A program made the translations under genes and the position numbers. A DNA stretch of 64,000 nt from Minisyncoccota bacterium (GTDB lineage: Bacteria > Patescibacteriota > Minisyncoccia > Phycocordibacterales > UBA12079), in contig JAGLSI010000001.1 of assembly GCA_023135835.1 (NCBI GenBank), forward strand, positions 2,400 to 66,399, written 5' to 3'. The notes below the pieces were generated by a model that was given only the letters and a program-made list of their open reading frames with translations, had not been told where the DNA came from and did not search any database. This document shows positions 17,484 through 52,312 of this stretch, one piece after another (the first letter of the stretch is position 1; the number at the start of each line of letters is the position of its first letter).

Positions 17484-17518
17484 TTTTAACGGCTACATTA
17501 ACGTAGCCGTTAAAATTT
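17484..17518 (+). terminator. terminator hairpin ttttaacggctac...gtagccgttaaaa
   Basis: member of a recurring AACGGCTA..TAGCCGTT hairpin family (also 35421, 40268). Confidence 0.55.
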
Positions 17519-23982: not shown

Positions 23983-24213
23983 CTTTGCTTTTAGTCAGTT
24001 GTTTTAACCTTTTTTAGAAAATAAGCTTTAATATAGTTATTGAGAGAAGCTTTTTGATTTATATAGTCCAATCGATTGGACTATTTTTTGCATTTCTAGT
24101 GTTATAAATAAAACTTATAGGTTTTAAAGTTTAAAATTCCATCGGCTCATTAAAGTGAGCCGATGGAATTTTCTTAAATTTAAATCTTAAAAAAATAAAA
24201 AAGTTAAACTTTT

Positions 24214-29659: not shown

Positions 29660-32600
29660 ATGAGTATATTTAAACTTAAGGACACTGCGGTAATGAAAGT
29701 TATCTCAGTTTTCGCAGGTAGTGCTATGGCTCTTACTCTTGTGTTTGGTGGTGCAGTTGCTCCAGCTCAAGCTCAAACAGTAGAAGAACTTACAGCACAA
29801 ATAAATTCTTTGCTAGCAATGATTACATCTTTGCAAGCTCAATTAACAACAATCGGAGGAGGTACTGTATCAGGAGTATCTTATAGCTTCACAACAAACC
29901 TTTCACAAGGAGATAGTGGGGCAGACGTTTTGAATCTTCAAAAAGTTCTTAACATGAGTGCAGACACTCAGGTTGCAGTAACAGGAGTAGGTTCAGCAGG
30001 ATTGGAGACAGAATATTTTGGTTCTTTGACTAAAACAGCTGTAATTAAATTCCAGAACAAATACGCTTCTGAAATTTTGACACCAGTTGGATTAACAGCA
30101 GGAACAGGATATGTTGGTCCTTCAACAAGAGCTAAATTGAACACAATGACAGCTCCAGTTGTACCAGTAACTCCAATTGACCCAACAACACCAGTTGTAG
30201 TACCTACAGGAACAGGATTAACTGTTTCAGCAGGAGCACAACCTACAGCTAATTTAGCTGCTGGAGGTGCAGCAAGAGTACCTTTCACAAAAGTAGTACT
30301 TACAGCTAGCGCTGATGGAGCTGTTGTAGTTGACTCTATTTTAGTAGAGAGAACAGGTTTGTCACAAGACGCTGCGTTCGCAGGAATCGTTCTTTTGGAC
30401 GAAGATGGAACACAACTTGGGATTGCAAAAACTTTGAACTCATTACATCAAGCAACTGTTGGAGAAGCCTTCACAGTTAATGCGGGAACTTCAAAGACAA
30501 TTACAATCGCAGCTAACATGACTACTAAAACATTGATGGCTGATTACACAGGGCAAGTTGGTTCATTGACAGTAGTAGGAGTAAATACTTCAGCTACAGT
30601 TAACGGAGCTCTTCCAATTGTAGGAACAAGTCATACAATGAACTCTTCTCTAACAATTGGAACAGTTTCAGTTGCAAGAGGAATAAATGATCCAAATACA
30701 GCTGCTACAAAAGAAGTTGGAGTATCAGATTATACTTTCGCTTCAGTTAAGATAACAGCTGGTTCAGCAGAAAAGGTTAGAATTCATTCTTTGAGATGGA
30801 ATCAATCAGGTTCAGCTTCAGCAGCAGATTTAGAAAATCTAAAAACTTATGTTGACGGAACAGCTTATGATATTACAGTTTCAGCTGATGGAAAATATTA
30901 CACAGCTGACTTTGGAAGTGGAATTGTGATTGACAAAGGTCTTTCAAAAGAAATTTCAATCAAAGGTGATATCGTAGGAGGATCTGGAAGAAATATCGTA
31001 TTTGATATTTATAAATCAACTGATTTATATGTAACAGGAGAAACTTACGCATACGGAATTACACCACCAGCAGGAAGTGGAACTGCAGCTACAACTGGCT
31101 CAGATTTTCTTGCAACAACACCGTGGTATGATAACTGTCATGTAACAGTTTCAGACGGAACTCTAACAGTTTCTAAAGCGACTTCAGTAGAATCACAAAA
31201 TGTTGCTGAGGTTGTAGCTAATCAAGTTCTTGGAGGATTTGATGTAGAAGTTAAAGGAGAAGCCGTTTCAGTAGCTAGTCTTGTATTTACAGGAACTATC
31301 GCTGGAGCAACAGGAGGAGTTGGAACAGATATTGATAATGTTACTTTGATAGACGCTAATGGTTCAGTAGTTGCTGGTCCAGTAGATGCTACAGGAGCTG
31401 CATTAACTGCAACTGTTACATTCTCAGATACAGTAACATTCCCAATTGGAACAGGAACTTATACATTGAAAGGTCAATTAGCGAGTGCGTTCGTTAATGA
31501 TCAAACACTTGTATTTGAAACTGATCCTGATGATAACTGGACAACAGTTACAGGACAAACAACAGGAAATGCTATTGTTCCTGCACCAACATCAGCTGTT
31601 ACTTCAAATACAATGACAATGAAAGCTGGTTCAGCTGTAATTAGTACATCTGCAAGCCCGGTAGCACAAAACATTGTAGCTGGAGCACAAAGCTTTGTAT
31701 TTGCTAATTTCCAATTTGATGCAACAGCATCAGGTGAAGATGTTAGATTTACATCACTTGTGTTATATAACACAGCTAGTGCTGAATCAGAATATCAAAC
31801 AGGATGTCAATTATTTGATGGGGATACTGCTTTGAACACTGGTTCAAATAAGAAAGATATTGCAGCAGATGAAGCAACATCTCAAACATTCACATTAGAT
31901 AGTGGTGGAGTGACAATTCCAAAAGGAACATTAAAGACTATTGCTTTAAAATGTAACCTTTCAGCTTCAGCAGTTGCTCAAACTTACTTGTGGAAGATGT
32001 CAGCAGAACAATCAGGAACAGGTCTTGACTCTGGAACAACTATCACAATTGCAGCAGCTAATGTGACTGGAGATGGTCAATTGATGTCATCTACTGAAAA
32101 AGGAACACTTACAGTTACTGAACAATCAGGTGCTTACACAATTGCAGCGGCTGGTACTACAGATGTAACTCTAGGTTCATTGAAATTCACAGGAACAAAT
32201 GAATCAATTGCATTGAAGAAATTAGCTCTTCAACTAACAGATGCTTCAAGTACACCTTCAGATTTAGTTAAAGTAACTTTGTGGGATGGAGCAACAAAAG
32301 TTGGTGAAACTATCTTCACAGGTACAAACAATAATGCAACATCAACTTTGTCAGGAAGTTTCATAATTCCTAAAGACGGAACTAAGATTCTAACACTTAA
32401 AGGTGATTTAGCAGAAATTGGTACATCTAAGGTTGGAACTCAAGGAGCATTATTGATCGTTAATTACGATGATGATGACCCTACAGGAACACAAGGTGTA
32501 GGTGATCAATCAGGTACAACTATTAGCAGAACTTCTGCTTCAACAGATTCAACATTTGATGGAGTAAGAGTATTTAGGGCTTACCCTGAAATGGCTAAGA

Positions 32601-33232
32601 TTGATATCTCAGGATCATTAACACCTGGAACTACTGATCTTTACAGATTTAGCGTAACAGCTAAAGATAAAGATGGAGTAAGTGAAGGGGTTGGTATTTA
32701 CAAGTTCACACTTAACTTAGCAACATCATCAGATAATGCTACAACAGGTTCAACTACAGTTACAAATGTAAAAGTGTATGCTTACACTGATTCAGCATTT
32801 TCAACAACAGTTGATCAATCAGCAGATGGTACTGCTTACACAAGTGGACAAGTAGTAGCAACAGTTCCACAACCATTAGGAACAACAGCAGGAGTTGATA
32901 ATGAATTATTATTGAGTTCAGCTCTACAAATCCCAGCAGGTCAAACTTATTACTTTAAAGTAGTAGGAACAACCAGCATCGTTTCTGGAACAGGAACAGA
33001 CGCTAATAACTGGGTTAAATCTTACATCGCTGGAGATTCAGCATACGCTGTAAACAGTGCAAGATTAATGGAATTAGCTGATACAGTAGATAGTGATACA
33101 AATGATGCTTTCATTTGGTCACCATATGCAACAACTACTTCCGTAACAACTACTCATTATGACTGGACAAACGGATATAAGATTTACGGTTTGCCAGCAG
33201 ATGGTATGGACTCAGAAACTGTTAACCAATAA
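29660..33232 (+). CDS. S-layer-like large surface protein with signal peptide and PG-binding-like module; probable start 29693
   Basis: signal peptide MKVISVFAGSAMALTLVFGGAVAPAQA, coiled segment, PG_binding_1-like GDSGADVLNLQKVLN...FQNKY, ~900 aa Thr/Gly/Ser/Val-rich repeats. Confidence 0.7.
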   Translation: MSIFKLKDTAVMKVISVFAGSAMALTLVFGGAVAPAQAQTVEELTAQINSLLAMITSLQAQLTTIGGGTVSGVSYSFTTNLSQGDSGADVLNLQKVLNMSADTQVAVTGVGSAGLETEYFGSLTKTAVIKFQNKYASEILTPVGLTAGTGYVGPSTRAKLNTMTAPVVPVTPIDPTTPVVVPTGTGLTVSAGAQPTANLAAGGAARVPFTKVVLTASADGAVVVDSILVERTGLSQDAAFAGIVLLDEDGTQLGIAKTLNSLHQATVGEAFTVNAGTSKTITIAANMTTKTLMADYTGQVGSLTVVGVNTSATVNGALPIVGTSHTMNSSLTIGTVSVARGINDPNTAATKEVGVSDYTFASVKITAGSAEKVRIHSLRWNQSGSASAADLENLKTYVDGTAYDITVSADGKYYTADFGSGIVIDKGLSKEISIKGDIVGGSGRNIVFDIYKSTDLYVTGETYAYGITPPAGSGTAATTGSDFLATTPWYDNCHVTVSDGTLTVSKATSVESQNVAEVVANQVLGGFDVEVKGEAVSVASLVFTGTIAGATGGVGTDIDNVTLIDANGSVVAGPVDATGAALTATVTFSDTVTFPIGTGTYTLKGQLASAFVNDQTLVFETDPDDNWTTVTGQTTGNAIVPAPTSAVTSNTMTMKAGSAVISTSASPVAQNIVAGAQSFVFANFQFDATASGEDVRFTSLVLYNTASAESEYQTGCQLFDGDTALNTGSNKKDIAADEATSQTFTLDSGGVTIPKGTLKTIALKCNLSASAVAQTYLWKMSAEQSGTGLDSGTTITIAAANVTGDGQLMSSTEKGTLTVTEQSGAYTIAAAGTTDVTLGSLKFTGTNESIALKKLALQLTDASSTPSDLVKVTLWDGATKVGETIFTGTNNNATSTLSGSFIIPKDGTKILTLKGDLAEIGTSKVGTQGALLIVNYDDDDPTGTQGVGDQSGTTISRTSASTDSTFDGVRVFRAYPEMAKIDISGSLTPGTTDLYRFSVTAKDKDGVSEGVGIYKFTLNLATSSDNATTGSTTVTNVKVYAYTDSAFSTTVDQSADGTAYTSGQVVATVPQPLGTTAGVDNELLLSSALQIPAGQTYYFKVVGTTSIVSGTGTDANNWVKSYIAGDSAYAVNSARLMELADTVDSDTNDAFIWSPYATTTSVTTTHYDWTNGYKIYGLPADGMDSETVNQ

Positions 33233-33384: not shown

Positions 33385-33513
33385 TATGTTATCAAAATCC
33401 TTGGATATCGGATGTCCAAGGATTTTCAATGGGCTCAAGTCGTTGATTCGTTGAAGTATTTTATAGCTTAATAATAGCGCTCCAAGCGCTACTATTATGT
33501 TGAATAAGGAAAG

Positions 33514-33658: not shown

Positions 33659-33853
33659 TTTGTTTAAAAACTCTTGACTTTTTTATTCACTTTGCTATTA
33701 TATAGAAAGTACTTGAATCTTGGCTTGCCAATATTTAGGTACTATGAAAAGAGTCATTATTCCTTCGGGGGTTCTGGCTTTTTTCATTGTCAAAATTCAC
33801 TTATTTAATAGTAGCGCTTGGAGCGCTGTTACTAAAATTCAGATAATATTTAC

Positions 33854-33915
33854 AGCGCTTGGAGCGCTGTAATAGGGTAATATAATTTAATTATGAATAA
33901 TATAAATTTAAAAAC
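33854..33915 (+). repeat. direct repeat (copy 1) of promoter region plus first 7 codons of gene 35132 (MNNINLK then stop)
   Basis: ~60 bp identical to 35095-35156, includes AGCGCTTGGAGCGCT palindrome. Confidence 0.7.
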
Positions 33916-35054: not shown

Positions 35055-35094
35055 CAGAATATTGCAGCGCTCCAAGCGCTGCAATTAATAGTAG

Positions 35095-35156
35095 CGCTTG
35101 GAGCGCTGTAATAGGGTAATATAATTTAATTATGAATAATATAAATTTAAAAAAAT
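35095..35156 (+). repeat. direct repeat (copy 2) spanning promoter and 5' end of 35132 gene
   Basis: identical to 33854-33915. Confidence 0.7.
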
Positions 35157-35395: not shown

Positions 35396-35516
35396 TTAAA
35401 GTTTTTTAAAATAAACAAAAAAATCTAACGGCTATGAACTTATAGCTGTTAGATTTTTTATATAGAACGGTTTATTTTGATATTGCTTAGTTTGTGTAAG
35501 TGTATTTATATAAACA

Positions 35517-35545: not shown

Positions 35546-35806
35546 TTGATACATGAGTTAATTATTTACTTTTTATTAAATATTATGAATAAATTACATA
35601 AAAGAGAAAAATTTAAAAGGTTAGCAACTTCTAGAACAATGGATGTTTTAAAAAGATTGCAGGTTCTTTCTAATTGTTCTAATCGTAGTGCTTATGATTA
35701 TAACGAAGAAGATATAAATAAAATATTTTTAACAATTGATAAGGCGGTAAAAGATTCTAAGTCGAAATTTCATTACCCTAAAGAAAAAATTAATTTTAAA
35801 TTATAA
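35546..35806 (+). CDS. hypothetical small basic protein, first gene of cassette (alt start 35585)
   Basis: 86-aa ORF, no recognisable motif. Confidence 0.35.
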   Translation: MIHELIIYFLLNIMNKLHKREKFKRLATSRTMDVLKRLQVLSNCSNRSAYDYNEEDINKIFLTIDKAVKDSKSKFHYPKEKINFKL

Positions 35807-35810
35807 TATT

Positions 35811-37508
35811 ATGTCTATACAAGGAAAAATATCTCCTAGAATTATTCAGTCTATATCAACATTATATAATGATACTAATCGTGTAATTCTTGAATTCATT
35901 GATAACTCAATAGATAGTGCTGAAGAATACTTTGATTCTTCTAACAATGGTTATATAAGACCGATTAAAATTATTTTAGAGATAGATGGAAAAAATAATA
36001 AAGATGGGGTTGTCAGCATTTCCGATAATTGTAAAGGTATGTTTAACATTGAAAAGATAGTCCAAAACATAGGTAATTCTGATAAAAAAGCACAGCCATG
36101 GACGAATGGGCAATTTGGTTATGGAATGTGTTCTTTTATTGCTTGTTGTAGTGAATTAAAAGTTGTTTCTAGGTTTGAAAAAGGAAAGATTTTTGAAATA
36201 AATATTTTAAAGGATCATTTTTTAGTTGATGATCAAAAAGATTTTCTTTTTTCTGATCCTATTATAAATAGTAATTTTGAATATGATACTGGGACTAAGG
36301 TAGTATTAAAAATGTTTGGTAAAAGTGATTGGAAAGATATAGACATTAAAGAGATCCAAGTTGAAATAGAAAAGCATTTTGAATTGTTACTAAATAGAAC
36401 TAATTTAGAAATTAAATTAATTTCAAATGGGAATGAGTCTATCTGTAAACCTTTCGATTATTCTTTGCATGAGGGAAGAGAGATAAATGAATATTTGGAA
36501 AATTCATTTAATTCACTTCTTTGTATTGATAAACCAATTCACTTGTTTATAAAAGTAACCGAAGGAAAAGATGTTAATAAAAGACCTATTTTTATTGTTA
36601 AAGGGAGAAGAATTGCTGAAATAAAAGATATTAAAGCTTTTAAGTCAAAAAATAAAAGTGATATTTGGAATCATCCTAATATAACTGGATATATAGATTT
36701 GGGGAAATCCATAGAACCTGATATATCAAGAATAAATGGTTTTAGCCCCCAATACAAAGATAAGATGAATATTATATTTAATTGGTTAATATCAAAAGAA
36801 TCAGATATTTTAGATTTAATTAAAGAAGATAATGAAAGTACTCAAGAAAAGCATTATCAACAGTTAGAAGATATTTTAAGCAAAGCTTTATCAAAAATCG
36901 CTCGGATAGATTCTATGAATTTTAGAACCGACATTATTTCTGGAAAAGAACTTATTCTAGAAAAAGGTGCTATTGGTAGTGGTATAGGAATTTCTGCTCC
37001 ACTCCCTGGGTCTGGTGAGCTTGGCGGTGAGGGAGGAGGAGGCTCTGATTTTCTTGAAGGAGATAATCCTGATGATCAACTTGGTGGAAATAAAAACTTA
37101 GCCAAAGAAAGTGATAGTCTTTTTGATGATAAAGAACCAGAGGGAAAAAAGAGAAGAAAAAGTGGTTTTAATATCAAAATTTCTGATCTAGAACCCAATG
37201 TTGATATAAACACAGAAAAACAAATTAAATCTCGTTTAATTGGTGATACTATTGAGATTTTTAAAAAACATCCTGAATTTGAAAAAAGAGTTGGGCATTT
37301 TCGTGGTGGAAGGCCGAAGATAACTCAAAGGTTAATAACTTATTTAGCTGGGGAAATCACGGTTCATTATAAAGATAGGTTTTATTCAAAAACAGGACAA
37401 CCAGAATATAATATAAAAATGTTTGAGAGTTTAGTTGAATCAATTTATCTTTTTGAGGATTTATTAAGGGATTTTGTTGAAAAAGATTTATCATCATGGA
37501 ACAAATAA
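35811..37508 (+). CDS. GHKL-superfamily ATPase (MutL/MORC/GyrB-type Bergerat fold) with long C-terminal region of unknown function
   Basis: N-box ILEFIDNSIDSAEE, G1 ISDNCKGM, G2 TNGQFGYGM within first 130 aa; Gly-rich linker GSGELGGEGGGGSD. Confidence 0.75.
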   Translation: MSIQGKISPRIIQSISTLYNDTNRVILEFIDNSIDSAEEYFDSSNNGYIRPIKIILEIDGKNNKDGVVSISDNCKGMFNIEKIVQNIGNSDKKAQPWTNGQFGYGMCSFIACCSELKVVSRFEKGKIFEINILKDHFLVDDQKDFLFSDPIINSNFEYDTGTKVVLKMFGKSDWKDIDIKEIQVEIEKHFELLLNRTNLEIKLISNGNESICKPFDYSLHEGREINEYLENSFNSLLCIDKPIHLFIKVTEGKDVNKRPIFIVKGRRIAEIKDIKAFKSKNKSDIWNHPNITGYIDLGKSIEPDISRINGFSPQYKDKMNIIFNWLISKESDILDLIKEDNESTQEKHYQQLEDILSKALSKIARIDSMNFRTDIISGKELILEKGAIGSGIGISAPLPGSGELGGEGGGGSDFLEGDNPDDQLGGNKNLAKESDSLFDDKEPEGKKRRKSGFNIKISDLEPNVDINTEKQIKSRLIGDTIEIFKKHPEFEKRVGHFRGGRPKITQRLITYLAGEITVHYKDRFYSKTGQPEYNIKMFESLVESIYLFEDLLRDFVEKDLSSWNK

Positions 37509-38380
37509 ATTTACAAAAACTTATAAAACAGATTTCACCTCTTTATAATTCTTATAAAGAGTCTAAGGGTAATATTAATGGAACAGAAGCATTATTTATA
37601 ATGTGGGAAATAGGAGAACTTTTGAAGAAAAAAATTGAAGAGTTTGGTATCGCTCCTCATAATTTATATAGAAAGATATATGGAAAAGCTGAAGGAAAAG
37701 AAGATATCATTCAAAGGAGCTATATTACGAGAGAGTTTTTAGGGAGAGCTTATCGTATAAGAAATATCTTTGAAAATAAAAATGATATTGAAAAAGATTT
37801 TCCTAATTTGAAAAAATTTATTTTGTTTAGAGAAGCAATGCCCTTTTTTGATAATAAAAAATATATGTTTAAAGGAAGAGATAGAGAAGATTTATTAACT
37901 ATTCTAAACAGTAACGAATCCTCAGATCTTATTTTTAAAAGAATTAAATTGTTACAAAAAGAAAAGATTGGAATAAAGAATTCAAGAAATCAAAAATTAA
38001 TTGAGTTACAGCCACAAAAAGAAATTTTTATAACTTTTTATAATTATGTATTTAATTTAATAAAAGATAACAATTACAGAGATACCAGAGAAAAAGTTTT
38101 GCCTTTAATAAATAATTCATTAATTAGCAAACTTTCTTCAAATACTAGCGCTTTAGCCCAAGAAGGACTAGTATACAAAAATATAGATGAAGAAATCTTT
38201 GATGATTATTGGATTTCTTACAGTAAACTATTGAAAGGTTTTTCTGAGCAAATGGACGCAAAAGAAAGAAGGAGATTTAGGCGATTAATATCTCCTGAAC
38301 GTATAATAAAATTAGCTGATATGTTACAGGTAATAACCTCTGAAAAATTATTTGTAAATTTTAAAAATCAGTTAAATTAA
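37496..38380 (+). CDS. hypothetical protein, overlaps upstream stop by 13 nt
   Basis: 294-aa ORF, 13-nt overlap with GHKL gene; no known motif. Confidence 0.5.
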   Translation: MEQINLQKLIKQISPLYNSYKESKGNINGTEALFIMWEIGELLKKKIEEFGIAPHNLYRKIYGKAEGKEDIIQRSYITREFLGRAYRIRNIFENKNDIEKDFPNLKKFILFREAMPFFDNKKYMFKGRDREDLLTILNSNESSDLIFKRIKLLQKEKIGIKNSRNQKLIELQPQKEIFITFYNYVFNLIKDNNYRDTREKVLPLINNSLISKLSSNTSALAQEGLVYKNIDEEIFDDYWISYSKLLKGFSEQMDAKERRRFRRLISPERIIKLADMLQVITSEKLFVNFKNQLN

Positions 38381-38388
38381 TTTAAGTC

Positions 38389-39936
38389 ATGAATTTTGAT
38401 GTTGATTCTAATATTTTTGATCAAAAAGAAGACCATTTAAAAACTAGGATAGAATCCCTAGATTTTTCTAGTAAGACAAAAATTTTGTTAAAAAAAGACA
38501 ATATATTAACTGTAAGAGGTTTATTAAAACGAACAGAAAAAGAATTAAAAAATAAATATAACTTAAGCAGATCAAATATAGACATAACTTTAAGAAAATT
38601 AAATTTTTTAAACTCAAAAATAAAAAATAAAGAAAAACAAAATAAAGGAGAAATATCAGATATTTCTGATGAATTAGATTTAAAAAATTGTTTTGAAGAA
38701 ATTTATATAGATAAATCGGAAGATGTTTTAGAAGTTTTTTCTAATTGGTTTGGTTTTGATGAAAAAATAATAAAGAGCAAGTCTAGAAAAAGTGAGATTG
38801 TAGATGTACGAGATTTAATAATTTATTTTTTACGTGAATATGGAGAGTTATCATTTCCTTATATAGGAGAATTATTAGGGGGTCGTGATCATACCACCAT
38901 CATTTATGCTTATAACAAAATAAAGAAAAAAATAAAAAATATAAGAGATTTTGAAAAAAAGTTTTTAAGTCTTATCAAAGAAAGTAACAAAATAAAAGAA
39001 AAAAAAGAATATATAAAAAGGATTCTAATTCCAATAATAGAAGTTTTGGTTTCTGAAAATAATTCTAAAAAAGGGGTTAAAATGGTTTCAGAAAGAAATA
39101 ATTATATTCTTCAATTATATAGAGAAGGATTAATTCTTGATAAAATAGGTAAAAAGATGGGAATTTCTAGGGAAAGAGTTCGTCAAATAGTTAAAAAAAC
39201 TATAGTACAATTAGCTATAAATAAATCAGTTTCTACTGGAGCAGAACTAAATTTTGATTTTCTTATTGAAGATGAGAAAAGGAAAAGAAAGGAAACTCAA
39301 CTTATTGCTAATCCTCCAAAAATAAAGACTATAAAAAAGAGATATTGGAGCAGAGATCATAGAAAATGTAAAATGTGCGAAAGAATTATTTATAAGCATG
39401 TTAGTAATGGTTTATGTGAAGAATGTACAGGTAGTTTTAGAGGAAAAAATAGAGAAAATATTATTTTGTTACATGAAAATAAATGTGATTTATGTGATGT
39501 CTTAAGAGAAGAAGCTAAAACACTTTATAAAAGAGATTTGTATATTATGAGAAATAAAATTGTGTGTTGTAGAGATTGCTTTTTAAAATTAACAGGAAAA
39601 ACTTTAGGTTCTTATAAAAATTATGAATGGAGTAGATTTTATCCCCAATGTAAAAAATGTGGGACAAAAGATATTCCTCATGCAAAATTAGGTCTTTGTG
39701 AAGAATGTTGCCTGTTTTTATCAGATAGCCAAAGAGAAAAAATTATTCAAGATAATAAGAGTGTGTGCTGTGTGTGTGGTATAAGCAGAGATGAAGCAAA
39801 AAGTAAATTTAAAAGAGATTTACATATCTGGAAAAACAAAAAAACATTTTGTCGAAAATGCCATCTTGTAGAGACAGGTAAAGTTCTTAGCGATTATAGA
39901 AAAAATAATTGGAAAAAGTTTTATAAAAATTATTAA
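38389..39936 (+). CDS. multi-DNA-binding-domain protein: RNAP alpha-CTD-like HhH + DnaA domain-IV HTH + sigma-70 region-4 HTH + tandem Zn ribbons
   Basis: IESLDFSSKTKILLKKDNILTVRGLLKRTEKEL (alpha-CTD pattern); FPYIGELLGGRDHTTIIYAYNKI (DnaA domain IV signature); LDKIGKKMGISRERVRQI (sigma r4.2); C-terminal A-B-A'-B' CxxC...CxxC repeats. Confidence 0.7.
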   Translation: MNFDVDSNIFDQKEDHLKTRIESLDFSSKTKILLKKDNILTVRGLLKRTEKELKNKYNLSRSNIDITLRKLNFLNSKIKNKEKQNKGEISDISDELDLKNCFEEIYIDKSEDVLEVFSNWFGFDEKIIKSKSRKSEIVDVRDLIIYFLREYGELSFPYIGELLGGRDHTTIIYAYNKIKKKIKNIRDFEKKFLSLIKESNKIKEKKEYIKRILIPIIEVLVSENNSKKGVKMVSERNNYILQLYREGLILDKIGKKMGISRERVRQIVKKTIVQLAINKSVSTGAELNFDFLIEDEKRKRKETQLIANPPKIKTIKKRYWSRDHRKCKMCERIIYKHVSNGLCEECTGSFRGKNRENIILLHENKCDLCDVLREEAKTLYKRDLYIMRNKIVCCRDCFLKLTGKTLGSYKNYEWSRFYPQCKKCGTKDIPHAKLGLCEECCLFLSDSQREKIIQDNKSVCCVCGISRDEAKSKFKRDLHIWKNKKTFCRKCHLVETGKVLSDYRKNNWKKFYKNY

Positions 39937-39957: not shown

Positions 39958-40254
39958 ATGATGATATTTGTTTATGTGATAATCGGAGTGGTAATTGGGT
40001 ACTTTGTTTTTGGTGGGTCTATGAATAAGAATGCTAAGAAAAACGAAGTTTTGGAGATTTTGGATGAAAAAGATAAGAAGATTCTGGCTTTGATTGAAGA
40101 AAAAGAGAAAGTTACTAATAATGATATAGAGAAATTGTTAGGGATAGCAGATAGTACTGCAACTAAATATTTACAACAATTGGAAGATAAAGGAAAAATT
40201 ATACAAAGAGGAAAAACTGGGAAATATACTTATTACGAAAAGGTTTCAAAGTAG
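39958..40254 (+). CDS. small membrane-anchored winged-HTH protein (paralog of 51833-52111)
   Basis: TM MMIFVYVIIGVVIGYFVF then DIEKLLGIADSTATKYLQQLEDKGKIIQRGKTGKYTYY; ~65% identity to second copy. Confidence 0.6.
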   Translation: MMIFVYVIIGVVIGYFVFGGSMNKNAKKNEVLEILDEKDKKILALIEEKEKVTNNDIEKLLGIADSTATKYLQQLEDKGKIIQRGKTGKYTYYEKVSK

Positions 40255-40267
40255 GTTGATAATTAAA

Positions 40268-40302
40268 TTTTTAACGGCTACGGTATCATAGCCGTTAAAA
40301 AT
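40268..40302 (+). terminator. terminator hairpin tttttaacggctacggtatcatagccgttaaaaat
   Basis: 10-bp stem plus flanking A/T runs, ends the cassette. Confidence 0.6.
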
Positions 40303-44213: not shown

Positions 44214-44507
44214 TTGGTTATGGCGAAGAAAATTGTTTTTTACGGGAAAGAAGATTTTTCTATCATACTTATTCTCTTGAATGATACTGTTATGGAGAAG
44301 GTACTCGCCGATATTGTTAAAGGGGATAGAGAAAATGGTAAAACAATGCCAATTATTGTTTTAAAGGATACTGATATAAAAGGTTTGTCTCAGCGTCTCT
44401 TTAGAGAATTTGAAGAAGATATTTCGGTTCCTATTGGTGAAGGCTTGTTTCAATTTAAAGATGCTGAAGACTTAACAAAGTATATTCAGCAGCAAGAGAA
44501 TATATGA
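44214..44507 (+). CDS. hypothetical protein
   Basis: 97-aa ORF, SD aaaggtaaaaggag, terminator 44518-44551. Confidence 0.4.
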   Translation: MVMAKKIVFYGKEDFSIILILLNDTVMEKVLADIVKGDRENGKTMPIIVLKDTDIKGLSQRLFREFEEDISVPIGEGLFQFKDAEDLTKYIQQQENI

Positions 44508-44633
44508 AGGGATATTGATGGCTGGGTTCTTAGGACCCAGCCATTTTTTAATTTTGTTGCTGGTATAAAAAATAGATGTTATTATTAATTGTAATATATA
44601 AAAGTGAGTGTATAAATCTCATTTTAAATTACT

Positions 44634-45251
44634 ATGGAAACATTAAGTAAATTATTTGGTAACGCTGCTAAAATAAAAATAATGAGACTGTTTTTGTCTA
44701 ATGATGATGTTATTTTTGATAATGCTGAAATATCAAAAAGGACAAAAGTATCTTTGGTAAATCTTCGTAAAGAACTGAAAATTTTTGAAAGTATTTCTTT
44801 GATTAAAAAAAGAATTTTTTATAAAGAAGTTATTAAAAAAGTAAAAGGAAAAGAAGTTGTTGAAAAGAAAAAAACAAGCGGTTGGATTTTAGACCCAAGT
44901 TTTTCTTTGCTAGCTCCTCTAAAAAATTTATTAATTAAAGGAAGTCCTGTTGCTCAAAAAGATATAATTAACCGTTTGAAGGGAGGAGGAGTTCTTAAAT
45001 TAATAATTACTTCAGGTGTATTTATTCAAGAACCAGATAGTAGAGTAGATATTTTAATAGTAGGAGATAATTTAAATAGTTCTTATTTAGAACGAGCAAT
45101 TCGTATATTAGAGTCTGAGCTAGGTCAAGAATTAAAGTATTTTATATTAGAAACTGATGATTTTAATTATCGTTTGGGAGTTTATGATAAACTTTTAAGG
45201 GATATTTTAGACTATTCTCATAAGAAAATCGTAAATAAGTTGGATTTTTAG
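44634..45251 (+). CDS. hypothetical protein with N-terminal wHTH
   Basis: AKIKIMRLFLSNDDVIFDNAEISKRTKVSLVNLRKELKIFESISLIKK. Confidence 0.45.
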   Translation: METLSKLFGNAAKIKIMRLFLSNDDVIFDNAEISKRTKVSLVNLRKELKIFESISLIKKRIFYKEVIKKVKGKEVVEKKKTSGWILDPSFSLLAPLKNLLIKGSPVAQKDIINRLKGGGVLKLIITSGVFIQEPDSRVDILIVGDNLNSSYLERAIRILESELGQELKYFILETDDFNYRLGVYDKLLRDILDYSHKKIVNKLDF

Positions 45252-45266
45252 TATCTAAATTAGGTT

Positions 45267-45275
45267 TTATCCACA
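45267..45275 (+). promoter_or_regulatory. perfect DnaA box TTATCCACA upstream of 45457 gene
   Basis: exact consensus 9-mer; TATAGACATATAAT -10-like 20 bp downstream. Confidence 0.4.
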
Positions 45276-45456
45276 GTTTTTGTATATTTTTATAGACATA
45301 TAATGATATTATATAAATATGGTATTTATTAATACTAAAATAAAGGTCGTTAAGTCATAAAACCAATGATTTTTTGGTGGTTGATTATTGACCATTCAAT
45401 TAAGTTTTGGGGATATGATGATAATTCATTATTAGTTTTAATTTTTTAGAAAAAAT

Positions 45457-46140
45457 ATGATATTACAAACATGGAGTGAAGTATTGTCACAATCTTTTCA
45501 AAGTCTTTGGATTGGAGTAATGGGCTTTGTTCCAAACTTAATAATCGCAATAATAATTTTTATTATTGGGTGGGTTGTTGGAGTTTTATTTGGGAGAGTA
45601 GTTTCTCAGATAATTCATTCATTAGGTATAGACAAACTTTTGAGAAGTGCTAGTGTTGAAAAAACATTAAATAAAGCAGGTTTCAATTTAAACGCCGGTA
45701 ATTTTTTCGGTGCTTTAGTGAAATGGTTTATTATTGTAGTTTTTGCCGTAGCTGCCTTTGATGTATTAGGGCTTGACCAAGTAAATTTATTTTTACAACA
45801 AGTAGTTCTACTATATCTACCTAGAGTAATTGCAGCAGCAGCTATTCTTTTGATTGCTGTTATTATTGCAGATGCTACTGAGAATCTTGTAATAGGTTCC
45901 GCAAAAGCAGTTGGTGCTAGAAAATCTCAATTTGGATTTTTAGGTACATCTGTTAAGTGGGCAATTTGGGTATTCGCTGGATTGATGGCTCTTTATCAAT
46001 TAGGAGTTGCATCAGCTTTTATTCAAACTTTGTTTACAGGATTAATCGTTGCTATTTCTCTATCATTGGGATTAGCTTTCGGATTAGGAGGAAAGACTGC
46101 CGCGTCAGATGTGATTGAAGACTTAAGAAAGAAAATGTAA
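45457..46140 (+). CDS. membrane protein with repeated 'conserved TM helix' (MscS-associated type) segments
   Basis: two similar TM hairpins; terminator 46160-46198. Confidence 0.55.
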   Translation: MILQTWSEVLSQSFQSLWIGVMGFVPNLIIAIIIFIIGWVVGVLFGRVVSQIIHSLGIDKLLRSASVEKTLNKAGFNLNAGNFFGALVKWFIIVVFAVAAFDVLGLDQVNLFLQQVVLLYLPRVIAAAAILLIAVIIADATENLVIGSAKAVGARKSQFGFLGTSVKWAIWVFAGLMALYQLGVASAFIQTLFTGLIVAISLSLGLAFGLGGKTAASDVIEDLRKKM

Positions 46141-50080: not shown

Positions 50081-50095
50081 GTTTTAAACAATAAA

Positions 50096-50131
50096 AAGGC
50101 GTTGGGCTTTAGTCCAACGCCTTTTTATTGT
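50096..50131 (+). terminator. terminator aaaaggcgttgggctttagtccaacgccttttt
   Basis: 10-bp stem plus T5 right after rplE, inside the normally continuous spc operon. Confidence 0.6.
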
Positions 50132-50137
50132 TTAAAT

Positions 50138-50225: not shown

Positions 50226-51218
50226 ATGCAAAAAGAAAATATTAAAACTAAAATAATAGTTCAAAACTTGTTTTCTTTAGGGTCTGATAAGAAGAAAGAT
50301 AAAACAGGCTTTACTTTTATTGACTTATTTGCGGGGATAGGAGGGACTCGTATAGGGTTTGAAAAAGCTGGAGGTGAATGTGTTTTTACGTCTGAATGGG
50401 ATAAATATTGTCAAGAAACATACAAAGCTAATTTTGGAGAAGTTCCATATGGAGATATAACAAAAATTAAAGAATATGAAATACCTAATTTTGATGTTTT
50501 AGTAGCAGGATTTCCTTGCCAACCATTTAGTTCTATAGGTAAAAGAGAGGGTTTTATGCACACTACTCAAGGAACTTTATTTTACGATGTTTTAAGAATC
50601 ATAAATCATAAAAAGAACAAAGCATTTTTATTGGAAAATGTTCCAGGGTTACTAACTCATGATAATGGAAATACTTTTAAGATTATATTAGATTCTTTGA
50701 AAGAAGCAGGTTATAAGGTTTTTAGTAAAGTATTGGATGCTTCTAATTTCGGAGTTCCTCAAAAAAGAAAGAGAATTTATATAGTTGGTTTTAGAAAAGA
50801 TTTGTTTGAAGGTGAAGATTTTGTATTTCCTGAGGGAAATAATAAACAATCTTTTATAAACGAACACTTAGAAGATAATGCTTTAGGTTATTCTATTTCT
50901 AAACATTTACAAAAAAGTTATTTGTTTAAAAAAGATGATGGTAGACCAATAATAGTAGATAAAAATTCTAAAATTCAAACAAAAACATTAGTTTCTACTT
51001 ATCATAAAATTCAAAGGTTAACAGGAACTTTTGTTAAAGATGGAGAAACAGGAATTAGATTACTAACTGAAAATGAATGTAAAGCGATCATGGGTTTCCC
51101 AAAGGACTTTATTATTCCTGTGTCAAGAACTCAGATGTATAGACAAATGGGTAATTCAGTTGTTGTTCCAGTTATCGAAGCTGTAGCAAGAGAAATAGAA
51201 AACAAATTAAAATTATAA
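50226..51218 (+). CDS. DNA (cytosine-5)-methyltransferase (type II R-M modification subunit)
   Basis: motif I FIDLFAGIGGTRIGF, motif IV FPCQPFS, motif VI ENVPGL, motif VIII QKRKRIYIVG, motif X NSVVVPV. Confidence 0.9.
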   Translation: MQKENIKTKIIVQNLFSLGSDKKKDKTGFTFIDLFAGIGGTRIGFEKAGGECVFTSEWDKYCQETYKANFGEVPYGDITKIKEYEIPNFDVLVAGFPCQPFSSIGKREGFMHTTQGTLFYDVLRIINHKKNKAFLLENVPGLLTHDNGNTFKIILDSLKEAGYKVFSKVLDASNFGVPQKRKRIYIVGFRKDLFEGEDFVFPEGNNKQSFINEHLEDNALGYSISKHLQKSYLFKKDDGRPIIVDKNSKIQTKTLVSTYHKIQRLTGTFVKDGETGIRLLTENECKAIMGFPKDFIIPVSRTQMYRQMGNSVVVPVIEAVAREIENKLKL

Positions 51219-51231
51219 AATAGTTATTTTT

Positions 51232-51828
51232 ATGAAAAAACATAAAATCAAAAAAATAAGTCAAAATAGTTTATTGGTTGAATATTTTCAGAATAATCCC
51301 AAGCGAGCTATTTCCCATCCTGAGGTGGTGGATTGGGTTATAAAAGAATTTAAGAAAAGAACAGGTAAAATTTTCAGAGATCCTGATAGAGGAATAAGAA
51401 AATTATATCAAAAAGGTTATTTAGTAAAAATTAAAAAAGGTGTTTATAAATATGATCCGTCGTTAATAAAGAAAAAAGAATTACAAGATTTTACATCAGC
51501 TATCAAGAAAAAGATTTTTGAACGAGATAGTTTTAAATGTGTTATGTGTGGTAAAGGAGAAAAAGATGGAGTTGAGATACATGCTGATCATATAAAACCA
51601 AAGGACTTAGGGGGAAAAGCTACTTTAGAAAATGGACAAACTCTCTGCAGCGCTCATAACTTTTTGAAGAAAAATTTAAAACAAACTGAAACTGGTAAGA
51701 AAATGTTTATACGTTTGTATGAATTATCTAAAAAAACTAAAGATAAAAAGCTTATTAAATTTTGCACAGAAATATTAGAGGTTTTTGAAACAAATAATAT
51801 TAACGGACACATTGAATGGAATAAATAA
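51232..51828 (+). CDS. HNH-family type II restriction endonuclease (N-terminal winged-helix, C-terminal HNH)
   Basis: CVMCG...HADHIKPKDLGG...ENGQTLCSAHN HNH motif; 13 bp after MTase stop. Confidence 0.7.
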   Translation: MKKHKIKKISQNSLLVEYFQNNPKRAISHPEVVDWVIKEFKKRTGKIFRDPDRGIRKLYQKGYLVKIKKGVYKYDPSLIKKKELQDFTSAIKKKIFERDSFKCVMCGKGEKDGVEIHADHIKPKDLGGKATLENGQTLCSAHNFLKKNLKQTETGKKMFIRLYELSKKTKDKKLIKFCTEILEVFETNNINGHIEWNK

Positions 51829-51832
51829 TAAA

Positions 51833-52111
51833 ATGACAATAATTTATATAATAATAGGAATAGCGATAGGGTATTTCGTGACAGTGGCTTTTGTTGGTGC
51901 TGGAAATAAAAAGGTTGAGAAAGAGCTTGACCAAGATGAAAAGATTTTGAATTTAATTGCTGAAAAGGAGAGGGTTACGAATGGGGATATACAAAAATTA
52001 CTTAGTATTGCAGATAGTACAGCCACTAAATATCTTCAAGAGCTTGAAGATAAAGGAGAAATTAAACAACAAGGCAAAGCAGGACGCTTTGTCTATTATG
52101 AAAAAATTTAA
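51833..52111 (+). CDS. small membrane-anchored winged-HTH protein (paralog of 39958-40254); ORF-track start 51785 overlaps HNH gene
   Basis: TM MTIIYIIIGIAIGYFVTVAFVGAG then DIQKLLSIADSTATKYLQELEDKGEIKQQGKAGRFVYY. Confidence 0.55.
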   Translation: MTIIYIIIGIAIGYFVTVAFVGAGNKKVEKELDQDEKILNLIAEKERVTNGDIQKLLSIADSTATKYLQELEDKGEIKQQGKAGRFVYYEKI

Positions 52112-52143
52112 TAAATTCAGAAAACCGTTGATTTTCAATCTAT

Positions 52144-52171
52144 TTCAATGGCTATGCCCATAGCCATTGAA
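52144..52171. repeat. 28-bp palindromic repeat TTCAATGGCTATGCCCATAGCCATTGAA (right boundary of R-M cassette)
   Basis: identical to 50138-50165. Confidence 0.8.
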
Positions 52172-52312
52172 TTTTATAATTGTTTGCGTTTGAAAAAGCT
52201 AAGAAGCTAAAAACCTAATATCCTAATAAGCTAAAAATGTTGACATCAAAGGGTGTTTTTGATAGGATAAGCAAGTATTCATTAATTATAATGACTATCT
52301 TTTAAAAAGATT

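Follow-up and report, generated by a model that had tools for sequence, protein, structure and literature searches.

Two short genes in the 64-kb window (the whole stretch of DNA analysed here) each encode a small protein with an N-terminal transmembrane (TM) helix and a C-terminal winged helix-turn-helix (wHTH), and each closes an accessory gene cassette that is bracketed by a pair of palindromes. The two proteins, p1 and p2, are not a local curiosity: they belong to a large, widespread and previously undescribed family of CPR bacteria (Patescibacteria). The window itself is part of a Ca. Pacebacteria (CPR) MAG. We consider it probable that these cassette-borne TM-wHTH proteins are tethered to the membrane and bind the boundary palindromes, with control or insulation in cis of their own defence cassettes as the likeliest outcome. 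The argument is built on observed features of these loci: how the proteins are put together, how the gene is linked to the palindrome, how palindromes bracket the cassettes, the covariation of protein and DNA, the bias of the cargo and the differing contexts in which related units occur. A large part of bacterial diversity belongs to the CPR bacteria, about whose defence and gene exchange little is known; to our knowledge they are mostly without CRISPR, and they lack conventional plasmids and integrons.

Architecture of p1 and p2

Both open reading frames named in the original prediction are present in the window:

39958..40254, + strand: p1, 98-aa TM-wHTH protein; recognition helix ADSTATKYL, of K-type
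51833..52111, + strand: p2, 92-aa TM-wHTH protein; recognition helix ADSTATKYL, of K-type

They are paralogous, as had been claimed, although at an identity below the ~65% put forward (61% over 80 aa by BLASTP, E 9e-30; ~60% over the full length), and by tblastn they are the only two copies in the window. The N-terminal TM helix and C-terminal wHTH that had been read from the sequences are borne out by hydropathy, by Pfam HTH_24 and by AlphaFold2. The N-terminal hydrophobic stretch has a Kyte-Doolittle mean of 2.3-2.5 (19-residue window) and is followed in both proteins by a Lys-rich, basic linker; in p1 the TM segment lies at about residues 3-20, with a GxxxG motif, and the wHTH comprises residues 37-95. 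The AlphaFold2 model (pLDDT 81) has a helix at residues 3-17, a disordered segment at 18-36 and a canonical wHTH at 37-95, laid out as H-H-H-beta-wing-beta. The soluble part of p1 and p2 amounts to ~60 aa in total.

HTH_24 (PF13412) matches the C-termini of p1 and p2 at 39.9 and 36.9 bits, respectively (cutoff 21.9), over profile positions 1-47 and 3-45 of 48. DUF977 (PF06163) also scores above its cutoff of 22.1 (32.3 and 25.6 bits), with only profile positions ~13-66 of 134, the wHTH part, aligned and a full match absent; similarly, only the ~45-60-residue HTH core of DeoR, MarR and FaeA-PapI proteins aligns, and not their full architecture, which would include the C-terminal sensor domain of DeoR or the dimerisation helices of MarR. 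There are no HTH_3/Xre matches, wHTH families scoring best, and neither a Trans_reg_C match nor an extracytoplasmic domain was found in p1 or p2. Structural comparison by PDB sequence-profile search and Foldseek gave only generic MarR, ArsR, AspA and Z-alpha wHTH matches.

The proposed likeness to the wHTH of Fic proteins is weakly supported, by PADLOC matches to the SoFic C-terminus (E 9e-7) and to Csa3/CARF wHTHs. These C-terminal domains, and those of the Schlafen/AlbA_2 'divergent AAA' proteins, share with the TM-wHTH proteins the pattern S/D-x-T-A-x-R/K-Y/D-L ... G-x-I ... G-x-G-R and, like them, are encountered in defence islands and at loci for type I R-M. However, they are fused to enzymatic or sensor domains and are without a TM helix, and we know of no conserved cognate palindrome that has been tied to them. 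In the ToxR/CadC/TcpP type, too, one TM helix anchors a wHTH at the cytoplasmic membrane, but there the wHTH is N-terminal and of OmpR type, the TM helix central and the sensor domain periplasmic, whereas the TM-wHTH proteins have the helix at the extreme N-terminus, 1-3 external residues and no sensor domain.

A widespread patescibacterial family

An exhaustive profile search returned 2,759 family representatives at 50% identity, with 1,011 at E ≤ 1e-10, almost all 93-135 aa long and matching over their full length. In another search, clustering at 90% identity left 2,432 clusters that bear the names Patescibacteria or Parcubacteria; cluster names are almost exclusively patescibacterial and annotations only generic (DeoR / MarR / FaeA-PapI). 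Among 262 small family members, 98% have an N-terminal hydrophobic helix and 225 a GxxxG motif, and in the small members the net charge is +2.5 over the 15 aa past the helix and 0 before it. From hydropathy and the positive-inside rule alone, we predict a single TM helix in N-out/C-in orientation and a cytoplasmic wHTH. A role as a DNA-uptake receptor outside the cell is disfavoured, because the charge distribution puts the wHTH in the cytoplasm.

Homologs on phages and plasmids were sought by tblastn, with no match in INPHARED phages or PLSDB plasmids and one partial match in IMG/VR, and a phage or plasmid origin was rejected on these grounds; when IMG/VR was scanned for exact palindromes, 27 single matches came up, which by a rough estimate is about the chance level. 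The literature on Patescibacteria uptake sequences, palindromes, wHTH proteins and defence islands yielded no earlier description.

Palindromes bracket both cassettes in the window

As the original prediction had it, p1 and p2 are the last genes of accessory cassettes. The start of p1 lies 21 nt past the stop of a 515-aa gene, the final member of a GHKL (HATPase_c_3) cluster, and that of p2 lies 4 nt past the HNH gene, in a C5-MTase/HNH/p2 block placed between rplE (L5) and rpsN (S14). The features of the two cassettes, together with two solitary palindromes elsewhere in the window, are as follows:

35423..35454: cassette 1 left palindrome, imperfect, ATCTAACGGCTAT-GAACTT-ATAGCTGTTAGAT
35585..39936, + strand: cassette 1 cargo
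35585-35806, + strand: cassette 1, 73-aa ORF
35811-37508, + strand: cassette 1, GHKL ATPase
37496-38380, + strand: cassette 1, 294-aa protein, weak EcoRV-like match
38389-39936, + strand: cassette 1, 515-aa protein with RNAP alpha-CTD, DnaA domain IV and sigma70 region 4 domains
40267..40302: cassette 1 right palindrome, TTTTTAACGGCTAC-GGTATC-ATAGCCGTTAAAAA
50136..50167: cassette 2 left palindrome, 30/30 copy of that at 52142
50226..51828, + strand: cassette 2 cargo, inserted between rplE and rpsN
50226-51218, + strand: cassette 2, C5 cytosine DNA methyltransferase
51232-51828, + strand: cassette 2, HNH endonuclease
52142..52173: cassette 2 right palindrome, ATTTCAATGGCTAT-GCCC-ATAGCCATTGAATT
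17484..17515: solitary K-type palindrome after a class II aminoacyl-tRNA synthetase gene, TTTTAACGGCTAC-ATTAAC-GTAGCCGTTAAAA
24137..24168: solitary palindrome of the CA (R-type) dialect after recA, minus strand, TTCCATCGGCTCA-TTAAAG-TGAGCCGATGGAA

The repeat said to flank the MTase-HNH pair, at a length of 28 bp, is real: ATTTCAATGGCTATGCCCATAGCCATTGAA recurs exactly and in direct orientation over 30 bp, at 50136 and at 52142, where chance would give 0. Its left copy comes just past the hairpin of the rplE terminator (50088-50131) and precedes the MTase start codon by 59 nt, and the right palindrome lies 31 nt past the p2 stop, with the arm core 38 nt past it. The original prediction had missed that palindromes enclose the GHKL cassette likewise: its right palindrome follows the p1 stop by 13 nt (conserved core, 21 nt) and its left one precedes the first cassette ORF by 131 nt. 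An Rfam search of the window found no known RNA family, and PADLOC gave no match to the cassette 1 cargo.

Gene and palindrome are linked across the family

The element past the stops of family genes is a sequence-conserved palindrome, AACGGCT[CA]A-N-T[GT]AGCCGTT, the 9-nt arms of which (AACGGCT[CA]A) are common to distant lineages. Of 60 family genes that end an operon, 28 have it no more than 120 nt past the stop; among the other terminal genes at the same loci the count is 11/396 (OR 30.6, p 2e-19). The strict palindrome is found in only about half of the family genes. At the far side of the upstream gene cluster there is usually a second, matched palindrome. Palindromes are paired in 16 loci, and spacer length is equal in 15/16 of these pairs, compared with 27/240 between-locus comparisons; inner-sequence similarity is 0.75 within locus pairs and 0.16 between loci (p 2e-10), and several pairs are 100% identical. 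The left copy is absent at several K-type loci (L006, L012, L017 and L037). Between the 7-nt arm cores lie 4 to 15 nt, depending on the locus, and this inner sequence is usually self-complementary too; a hairpin or cruciform (as RNA terminator or single-stranded DNA) may therefore matter as well, since an operator in double-stranded DNA would need no such feature.

The hairpins are indeed detected by a terminator scan, the wHTH fold is generic, and one solitary copy comes after recA and another after an aminoacyl-tRNA synthetase gene, all of which would suit a lineage-typical intrinsic terminator or REP-like element, with the wHTH being an ordinary small transcription factor that acts on another target and the covariation described below reflecting shared ancestry. 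We regard this as very improbable: the 9-nt stem sequence is kept across lineages of 25-48% GC, where terminators conserve structure only; the excess at wHTH gene ends is 30-fold over other operon ends in the same DNA; the 20-kb validation loci hold exactly two copies each, both at cassette edges; and the flanks run T-tract, hairpin, A-tract, the reverse of a canonical terminator.

A recognition-helix residue covaries with the palindrome arms

The residue preceding Tyr-Leu in the recognition helix covaries perfectly with bases 6-7 of the arm, Arg with CA, Lys with AC or AT and Asn with AA. TRYL proteins go with GGCTCA arms in 33/33 cases and TKYL proteins with GGCTA[CT] in 8/8, including p1 and p2; TNYL proteins go with GGCTAA. 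Two N-type loci fetched afterwards as a prospective test both have AA at arm positions 6-7.

Palindrome arm dialects: AACGGCTAC, AACGGCTCA, AACGGCTAA

The window holds two dialects, yet all four cassette-edge palindromes fit the adjacent K-type proteins; this, like the N-type predictions that came true, also argues against a coincidental terminator. K- and N-types are scattered over several places of a noisy NJ tree, and the covariation is built on few, putatively independent changes. A second candidate pair, helix 2 Q/E with arm position 3 C/T, proved inconsistent in a by-eye comparison.

We propose a new family of CPR TM-wHTH proteins with a putative cognate AACGGCTNA palindrome. In members, a TM helix containing GxxxG stands at the N-terminus, a basic linker follows, and the C-terminal wHTH has an S/A-D-x-T-A-T-[RKN]-Y-L helix; the gene has a palindrome at most 120 nt past the stop, the arm positions 6-7 of which fit R, K or N. 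All of these features are present in p1 and p2: both belong to the K-type, and their GGCTAC/GGCTAT arms begin 21 and 38 nt past the stop. One would search for a TM-wHTH gene of ~100 aa with AACGGCTNA-N-TNAGCCGTT behind it and, in most cases, a matching copy upstream.

Defence cargo and chromosomal context

Annotated cargo is almost entirely defensive (R-M types I, II, ISP and III, AbiE, GmrSD and Fic), the genes upstream of the wHTH gene belonging mostly to MTase, ResIII, HsdS/HsdR and Abi-type families. That the wHTH gene is a terminal gene travelling with accessory or defence cargo, as had been suggested, holds at 4/4 validation loci (picked by sequence length alone), at L133 and at many metagenome loci; at L128 the wHTH gene comes immediately after a Fic gene. 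One locus first taken as a different context (L004) was rejected as the same sequence. Housekeeping genes lie downstream and defence cargo upstream; since it is the downstream neighbours that are housekeeping genes, paralogs mostly beside unrelated housekeeping genes, named in the original prediction as evidence against it, are not what we see. Horizontally acquired islands with HsdM/HsdS/HsdR and an ATP-dependent endonuclease have been described in Patescibacteria (PMC12455944); the cargo of that type I R-M island matches that of our locus L131, and the report mentions neither a terminal TM-wHTH gene nor flanking palindromes nor a boundary element.

The family is very widespread in CPR bacteria, some members adjoin RuvB, RecQ or dnaN-region genes, and a site directly downstream of the gene recalls the parB-parS and sopB-sopC layouts. 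With the solitary palindromes near recA and the aminoacyl-tRNA synthetase gene, these observations could be read as signs of a core housekeeping protein, nucleoid-associated or tethering chromosome to membrane, for example in segregation in ultra-small cells, with an incidental link to defence. Such a role seems highly improbable, given that the gene is non-syntenic between related genomes (L133 and L135, L022 and L031), lies within insertions in conserved operons and is present in several copies per locus (the window, L043), that palindromes are rare away from cassette edges, and that a partition NTPase partner is not seen.

Palindrome-bounded units and their proposed movement

The suggestion that the wHTH gene marks a cassette family moving as a unit fits the data: palindromes are matched within a locus, and between L022 and L031 homology is confined to the unit from palindrome to palindrome, with unrelated flanking genes and different extra cargo. 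The cassette in the window splits rplE from rpsN, and that of a homolog splits fusA from tuf; tandem arrays of cargo, wHTH gene and palindrome occur in L043 and in the window. The same features would be expected of recombination or transposition ends of a non-autonomous cassette, with the TM-wHTH protein as an end-recognition or accessory factor that chiefly serves movement of the cassette and not control of its expression, either by recruiting a host-encoded recombinase or, in natural transformation, by shielding at the membrane the hairpinned ends of single-stranded DNA as it enters. The flanking copies would then be duplicates, as the equal spacers and identical pairs suggest, the solitary palindromes could be empty sites, and the self-complementary inner sequence would suit structure-based recognition as at attC, REP and IS200/IS605 ends. 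Nevertheless, we judge this rather unlikely, as no recombinase or transposase is present in any annotated cassette, no empty-site/filled-site pair or circular junction was found, the variable length of the inner sequence speaks against Xer-type sites, and plasmid and phage homologs were not found. Exact-protein look-ups for p1, p2 and S14, made in search of an empty site, gave only the same population with the same arrangement.

Units of comparable layout are known. The pdif (Xer) modules of Acinetobacter plasmids and integron attC cassettes are likewise accessory units bounded by short imperfect palindromes, have no internal recombinase, can stand in tandem and occur as related units in different contexts. 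However, pdif sites are 28 bp long, with a fixed 11-6-11 layout and a need for XerC/D, in contrast to the inner sequence of 4-15 nt found here, and attC sites have an R''-L''/L'-R' structure, are recognised by IntI and lie next to an attI/intI platform, the arms of the TM-wHTH palindromes being a different conserved 9-mer. Unlike either, each TM-wHTH unit carries its own putative cognate DNA-binding gene and near-identical flanking duplicates. No association with IntI, integrase or Xer was seen in neighbour Pfam lists or annotated loci, and no Y1 (HUH) transposase, TnpA or RAYT was seen in ~60 annotated neighbourhoods. We hold it only tentatively possible that the palindrome-bounded unit is an unrecognised, CPR-specific mobile defence cassette, the hairpin-forming end repeats of which are recognised by the membrane-anchored wHTH; the protein might recognise single-stranded DNA as it enters, on the cytoplasmic side of the uptake machinery, or might act jointly with a recombinase of the host. 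If so, defence genes would be swapped among CPR bacteria as discrete, self-marked modules.

A model for control in cis

Returning to control in cis, the reading that we favour, we strongly infer that the wHTH binds the palindromes as putative cognate sites, which the original prediction had overlooked, and we infer that the proteins dimerise, are tethered to the membrane and act on expression. The arms would be read sequence-specifically by the wHTH, positions 6-7 by the residue before the invariant Tyr-Leu (K70 in p1, K64 in p2). Dimerisation through the GxxxG TM helices, together with the flexible ~20-residue linker, could place two wHTHs on the two half-sites despite the inner sequence of 4-15 nt, and the protein would thereby occupy both cassette boundaries and tether them to the membrane. 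Control or insulation of the cassette in cis is the most likely consequence: the left site lies in or beside the promoter region, 20-140 nt upstream of the first cassette gene, and the right site just past the regulator gene, a placement that would allow autoregulated, insulated expression of potentially toxic defence genes. The wHTH may plausibly repress the cassette promoter, and the palindrome-bounded unit would also be the unit swapped between genomes. Against the model, a regulator gene at the operon 3' end with its own site downstream is atypical for repressors, and the strict palindrome and the left copy are not found at every locus. The suggested addiction module has no support, there being no toxin logic and no consistently adjacent partner toxin.

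A close functional parallel is with the controller (C) proteins of R-M systems, small HTH proteins encoded inside the R-M unit that have a palindromic site beside the operon, travel with the R-M genes and are thought to time or limit expression of the toxic nuclease. C proteins are, however, soluble and of Xre type (~80 aa); the C gene mostly precedes R or overlaps the REase gene, and its C-boxes lie in the promoter of the C gene itself, whereas the TM-wHTH proteins have an HTH_24 wHTH, an N-terminal TM anchor, a position as last gene, candidate sites at both cassette edges and cargo that includes defence other than R-M (AbiE, GmrSD, Fic/SocA).

Should the one-residue rule (Arg-CA, Lys-AC/AT, Asn-AA) be true, it would show cleanly, in a natural setting, how a protein and its DNA site switch specificity by co-evolution, and a membrane-anchored, putatively site-specific binder at both ends of an island raises questions on the insulation, localisation and movement of defence loci in ultra-small cells. 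Ribosomal-protein operons as a general target were rejected, r-protein or translation genes being near only 4/44 loci of at least 5 kb; the cassettes in the window and that of L006 sit in the spc, str or rplJL regions. As an easily searched signpost, the TM-wHTH gene with its palindrome would delimit defence cassettes at base-pair resolution across thousands of metagenomic genomes, and uncharacterised cargo between paired palindromes would yield candidate new defence systems. In the window, the candidates by such embedding are the GHKL ATPase, the 294-aa protein and the 515-aa fusion of alpha-CTD, DnaA domain IV and sigma region 4.

Two membrane-anchored winged-helix proteins and their family

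The original prediction held that two paralogous open reading frames (ORFs), each encoding a transmembrane (TM) helix and a winged helix-turn-helix (wHTH) domain, close accessory cassettes in the window (GC ~29%), and this proved correct for the two genes, here called p1 and p2. Exact protein look-up matches the window to contig DAOWHO010000007.1 of a Candidatus Pacebacteria (CPR/Patescibacteria) MAG, GCA_030641385.1.

Genes of the p1 and p2 cassettes
39958-40254, + strand: p1, 98 aa
51833-52111, + strand: p2, 92 aa
p1-side cluster, gene 1: 73-aa ORF
p1-side cluster, gene 2: GHKL ATPase (HATPase_c_3)
p1-side cluster, gene 3: 294-aa protein with a weak EcoRV-like match
p1-side cluster, gene 4, 38389-39936, + strand: 515-aa protein with RNAP alpha-CTD (12-62), DnaA C-terminal domain IV (111-178, 68.7 bits) and sigma70 region 4 (242-275)

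The start of p1 lies 21 nt past this co-directional cluster, and p2 lies 4 nt past an HNH nuclease gene that is itself preceded by a C5 DNA methyltransferase (MTase) gene, the block sitting in the spc operon between rplE and rpsN. Their paralogy stands, although BLAST-type comparison gives 61% identity across 80 aa (E 9e-30) in place of the predicted ~65%; tblastn detected no third copy in the window. Each protein begins with ~20 hydrophobic residues (Kyte-Doolittle mean 2.3-2.5) followed by a Lys-rich stretch, and each C-terminal domain matches Pfam HTH_24 above cutoff, weaker MarR, DeoR, IclR and DUF977 matches being confined to the HTH core. An AlphaFold2 model based on an alignment of 105 sequences (pLDDT 81) comprises a helix (3-17), a disordered segment (18-36) and a canonical winged helix (37-95).

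Both belong to a large family of CPR proteins that combine a TM anchor with a wHTH domain. Word-indexed search retrieved only 8 relatives; exhaustive profile search retrieved 2,759 representatives (50% identity) at E<=1e-3 and 1,011 at E<=1e-10, and 2,432 clusters at E<=1e-10 from a 90%-identity collection. Of the top 150 profile matches nearly all measure 93-135 aa and align over their full length; clusters with a named source derive almost entirely from Patescibacteria or Parcubacteria group bacteria, and are labelled only as 'DeoR', 'FaeA/PapI' or 'wHTH' regulators. Among solved structures and curated families we found none more specific than the generic wHTH fold. PADLOC matches fall on the wHTH portions of Csa3/CARF, SoFic and AbiEi, agreeing weakly with the earlier remark that the domain is of Fic type. 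Among 262 small members an N-terminal hydrophobic helix is present in 98%, with GxxxG inside it in 225 (G10 and G14 near-invariant in alignment A2), and the 15 residues that follow the helix have a net charge of +2.5, versus 0 ahead of it, indicating that the wHTH domain is cytoplasmic. In a sister subfamily of 160-250 aa, the gene for which is sometimes directly 3' of a TM-type gene, a long Pro/Glu-rich low-complexity N-terminus replaces the TM helix.

A conserved palindrome at the 3' end of the gene

The 3' end of the family gene is tightly linked to a sequence-conserved palindrome. Hairpins with the core GGCTA...TAGCC occur downstream of p1 and p2 alike, with similar hairpins at 35423, just 5' of the GHKL cluster, and at 17484; those at 50136 and 52142, on either side of the p2 block, constitute an exact 30-bp direct repeat (chance expectation 0). 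Across the loci collected (80 metagenome, 6 genome and several exact-match), the best hairpin 3' of family genes had a recurrent, identical stem sequence in lineages of ~25% to 48% GC, with the arm consensus AACGGCT[C/A][A/C], of which positions 1-7 are near-invariant. A strict motif matched 85 times in 615 kb, 31 of these matches falling <=120 nt past a family stop codon, and a palindrome was found at 28 of 60 operon-terminal family genes versus 11 of 396 other operon-terminal genes in the same DNA (odds ratio 30.6, p 2e-19). The flanks are T-rich before the palindrome and A-rich after it, the opposite order to that of a canonical intrinsic terminator.

Placement differs in two closely related loci (L041:3936-3957, L047:1184-1205), where the palindrome lies 26 nt 5' of the wHTH start and not 3' of the gene. 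In the sister subfamily, with its disordered N-terminus, the same palindrome often occurs within the coding sequence, in frame and ~265-300 nt before the stop codon, encoding T-A-Q-x4-E-P-L (L020, L033, L035, L036, L050-L052, L055, L057, L059, L067, L071, L073-L077, L082, L093-L095; e.g. L036:246-271, L071:5219-5244). The codons of these arms are fixed (ACG GCT CA...T GAG CCG TT), implying selection at the DNA level, and an adjoining gene without a Pfam match, on the opposite strand, holds a matching in-frame copy.

One recognition-helix residue covaries with two arm bases

In the motif S/A-D-x-T-A-T-X-Y-L, residue X, which precedes the invariant Tyr-Leu of the recognition helix, is Arg in 156, Lys in 20 and Asn in 41 of the 226 members scored, and it covaries perfectly with two arm bases. 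All 33 Arg-type genes having a palindrome have GGCTCA arms, all 8 Lys-type genes (p1 and p2 among them) have GGCTAC or GGCTAT, and GGCTAA accompanies Asn in L087 and in both flanking copies of L070. As a prospective test of this pairing two extra Asn-type loci were fetched: L135 contains AACGGCTAA-AGCCGC-TTAGCCGTT, beginning at the stop codon, and L133 contains two matched imperfect palindromes with GGC[C/T]AA arms, one per cassette edge. Four more Arg-type loci, picked solely by sequence length, had GGCTCA arms in every case. The palindrome arms are very likely bound by the wHTH domain.

As a caveat, the number of independent Arg/Lys/Asn switches is small and not established, the domain NJ tree being noisy. 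Such a pattern might also arise were each lineage simply to have its own arm dialect; however, the 4 cassette-edge palindromes of the window all show the Lys dialect that fits their neighbouring proteins, despite the presence of a CA-dialect copy (24137) in the same window, which argues against this explanation.

That copy (24137-24168) is solitary, follows recA and is mismatched to the two Lys-type proteins of the window; a second solitary palindrome (17484-17515), of the Lys dialect, follows a class II aminoacyl-tRNA synthetase gene. Each might be an unoccupied site, a relic, or the target of a paralog encoded elsewhere in the genome.

Matched palindromes bracket defence-dominated cassettes

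Matched palindrome pairs bracket these cassettes. Sixteen loci have a second palindrome 1.3-7.9 kb upstream, on the border of the gene cluster closed by the wHTH gene. Where measured, this left copy precedes the first start codon of the cassette by 20-140 nt. Spacer length is equal in 15/16 comparisons within a locus versus 27/240 between loci, and inner-sequence similarity is 0.75 within versus 0.16 between loci (Mann-Whitney p 2e-10); pairs are identical in the window (30/30), L128 (24/24), L131 (26/26) and L085 (24/24). Four 20-kb validation loci contained exactly two palindromes apiece, both at cassette edges. Some loci, mostly Lys-type, have the right copy only (L006, L012, L017, L037). 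Two palindrome units lie 10 kb apart in the window, and L043 has the tandem order TM-wHTH, palindrome, YgjP-like gene, TM-wHTH, palindrome, its two ~85%-similar TM-wHTH genes (L043:878-2523) being separated only by the YgjP-like metallopeptidase gene. As the simple gene caller overlooked the first L043 copy, tandem arrays are probably under-counted in these statistics.

The cargo is dominated by defence genes. Directly upstream neighbours include HsdR, N6 MTases, YgjP, DUF3800, KAP NTPase and DUF4357, and at positions -4 to -2 (94 proteins) the leading families are ResIII, N6_Mtase, D12 MTase, N6_N4 MTase and Eco57I, together with Methylase_S, MmeI, LexA/S24 and AAA_21. Bracketed cassettes scanned singly contained Z1/ResIII helicase with PD-(D/E)XK nuclease, MvaI REase, AbiEii, a Type ISP enzyme, DUF4357, a type III Res protein and a YgjP-like protein; validation loci contained MutH + LexA-MTase + PIF1, GmrSD/Schlafen + SocA + Fic, an N6-MTase-S fusion, HsdM/HsdS/AAA_15-21/HsdR, and Eco57I MTase + Tsp45I REase. 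Non-defence upstream genes include a genuine RecQ (L006), one transketolase and one short-chain dehydrogenase. Downstream neighbours (n=111) are housekeeping genes (HAD hydrolases, RuvB, NUDIX, PRK, pyrophosphatase, RecA, FtsK, rpoB, secD, tyrS), with no MTase among the families listed, and no recombinase or transposase appears in any neighbour or cargo list.

The GHKL ATPase, 294-aa and 515-aa cassette (35585-39936) has no counterpart among the known defence systems of PADLOC. Its position between palindromes, like that of established R-M, Abi and TA cargo in other loci, makes it a candidate new defence system. The three domains of the 515-aa protein, itself without a PADLOC match, are DNA- or RNAP-contact parts taken from core machinery, and it might act as a sensor, or a decoy, where phages interfere with replication or transcription.

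Just 3' of the type I R-M/TM-wHTH cassette of L131, a PDDEXK_3 nuclease-family gene (L131:12008-12409) between secD and secF represents another small insertion splitting a conserved gene pair.

Related units in different genomic contexts

The p2 cassette breaks the otherwise universal rplE-rpsN adjacency and that of a further locus, P0005, lies between fusA and tuf, indicating that the wHTH gene belongs to the inserted DNA. Related units occupy different genomic contexts: DNA homology between L022 and L031 extends from 18 nt before the left palindrome to 9 nt past the right one, covering the MTase (59% aa identity) and wHTH (74%) genes, whilst the flanking genes are unrelated, also at the protein level, and the extra cargo is unlike (Z1/ResIII + PD-(D/E)XK in one, MvaI REase in the other). 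The proposal that the gene marks a cassette family moving as a unit is supported by this homology. By Pfam annotation L133 and L135 both have dnaN, tyrS and a gene for a penicillin-binding protein (PBP) nearby, with no DNA homology detected between the loci; the wHTH gene is to one side of the PBP gene in L133 and to the other in L135. Together with gene-end enrichment, the arm consensus and dialects, the two-per-locus validation and the prospective Asn-type loci, the L022/L031 comparison disfavours both a plain terminator role for the palindrome and a housekeeping tether role for the family.

Exact-protein look-ups of the window proteins yielded neither an empty-site allele nor a circular form, and no family homologs were found on known plasmids or phages. 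Ribosomal operons are not generally preferred (4/44 loci).

Possible function

GxxxG-mediated dimerisation and the flexible linker would allow two wHTH domains to reach half-sites at variable spacing, and the resulting complex could tether the cassette edges to the membrane. We favour a role in controlling or insulating the cassette in cis: of the two sites, one falls within or close to the cassette promoter region and the other past the regulator gene. Such a protein would work similarly to an R-M controller protein without belonging to that family. As the main alternative, protein and palindrome would together serve cassette mobility; this draws on the duplicated ends, on where homology begins and stops, and on the self-complementary inner sequence, which points to hairpins. 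Mobility and cis control or insulation are not mutually exclusive. Of the roles originally envisaged, a shared control module is plausible and an addiction module gained no support.

We found no prior description of the family, palindrome or architecture in the literature; a published type I R-M genomic island in Patescibacteria notes neither the wHTH gene nor the palindrome (PMC12455944). Whilst wHTH proteins, palindromic repeats and R-M islands are each familiar, the combination of a membrane-anchored, cassette-borne, predicted site-specific binder with cognate sites bounding its cassette appears new, and gene and palindrome together offer a practical locator for defence cargo in CPR genomes.

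Other features of the window

Between the right palindrome and rpsN a good sigma70-like promoter match (52240-52268; TTGACA-17-TAGGAT, TG upstream) suggests that the downstream half of the spc operon is re-promoted after insertion. From rplL (L7/L12) to rpsS (S19) (44214-46140) no gene for L3, L4, L23 or L2 was identified, so that ribosomal gene order is unusual, cassette insertion aside; this interval encodes a 227-aa protein with mechanosensitive-channel TM-helix repeats as well as 97-aa and 205-aa ORFs without a convincing Pfam match. Short palindromes of a second, unrelated family, with core AGCGCTCCAAGCGCT / CAGCGCTTGGAGCGCTG, cluster in the ORF-poor 33.2-35.4 kb region 5' of the GHKL cassette.

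Second palindrome family
33469-33497
33849-33873
35060-35086
35093-35107

A 1,190-aa ORF (29660-33232) lies in a stretch of clearly raised GC content (0.36-0.39 versus ~0.29) and has a weak peptidoglycan-binding match only; it may be foreign or encode a surface protein.
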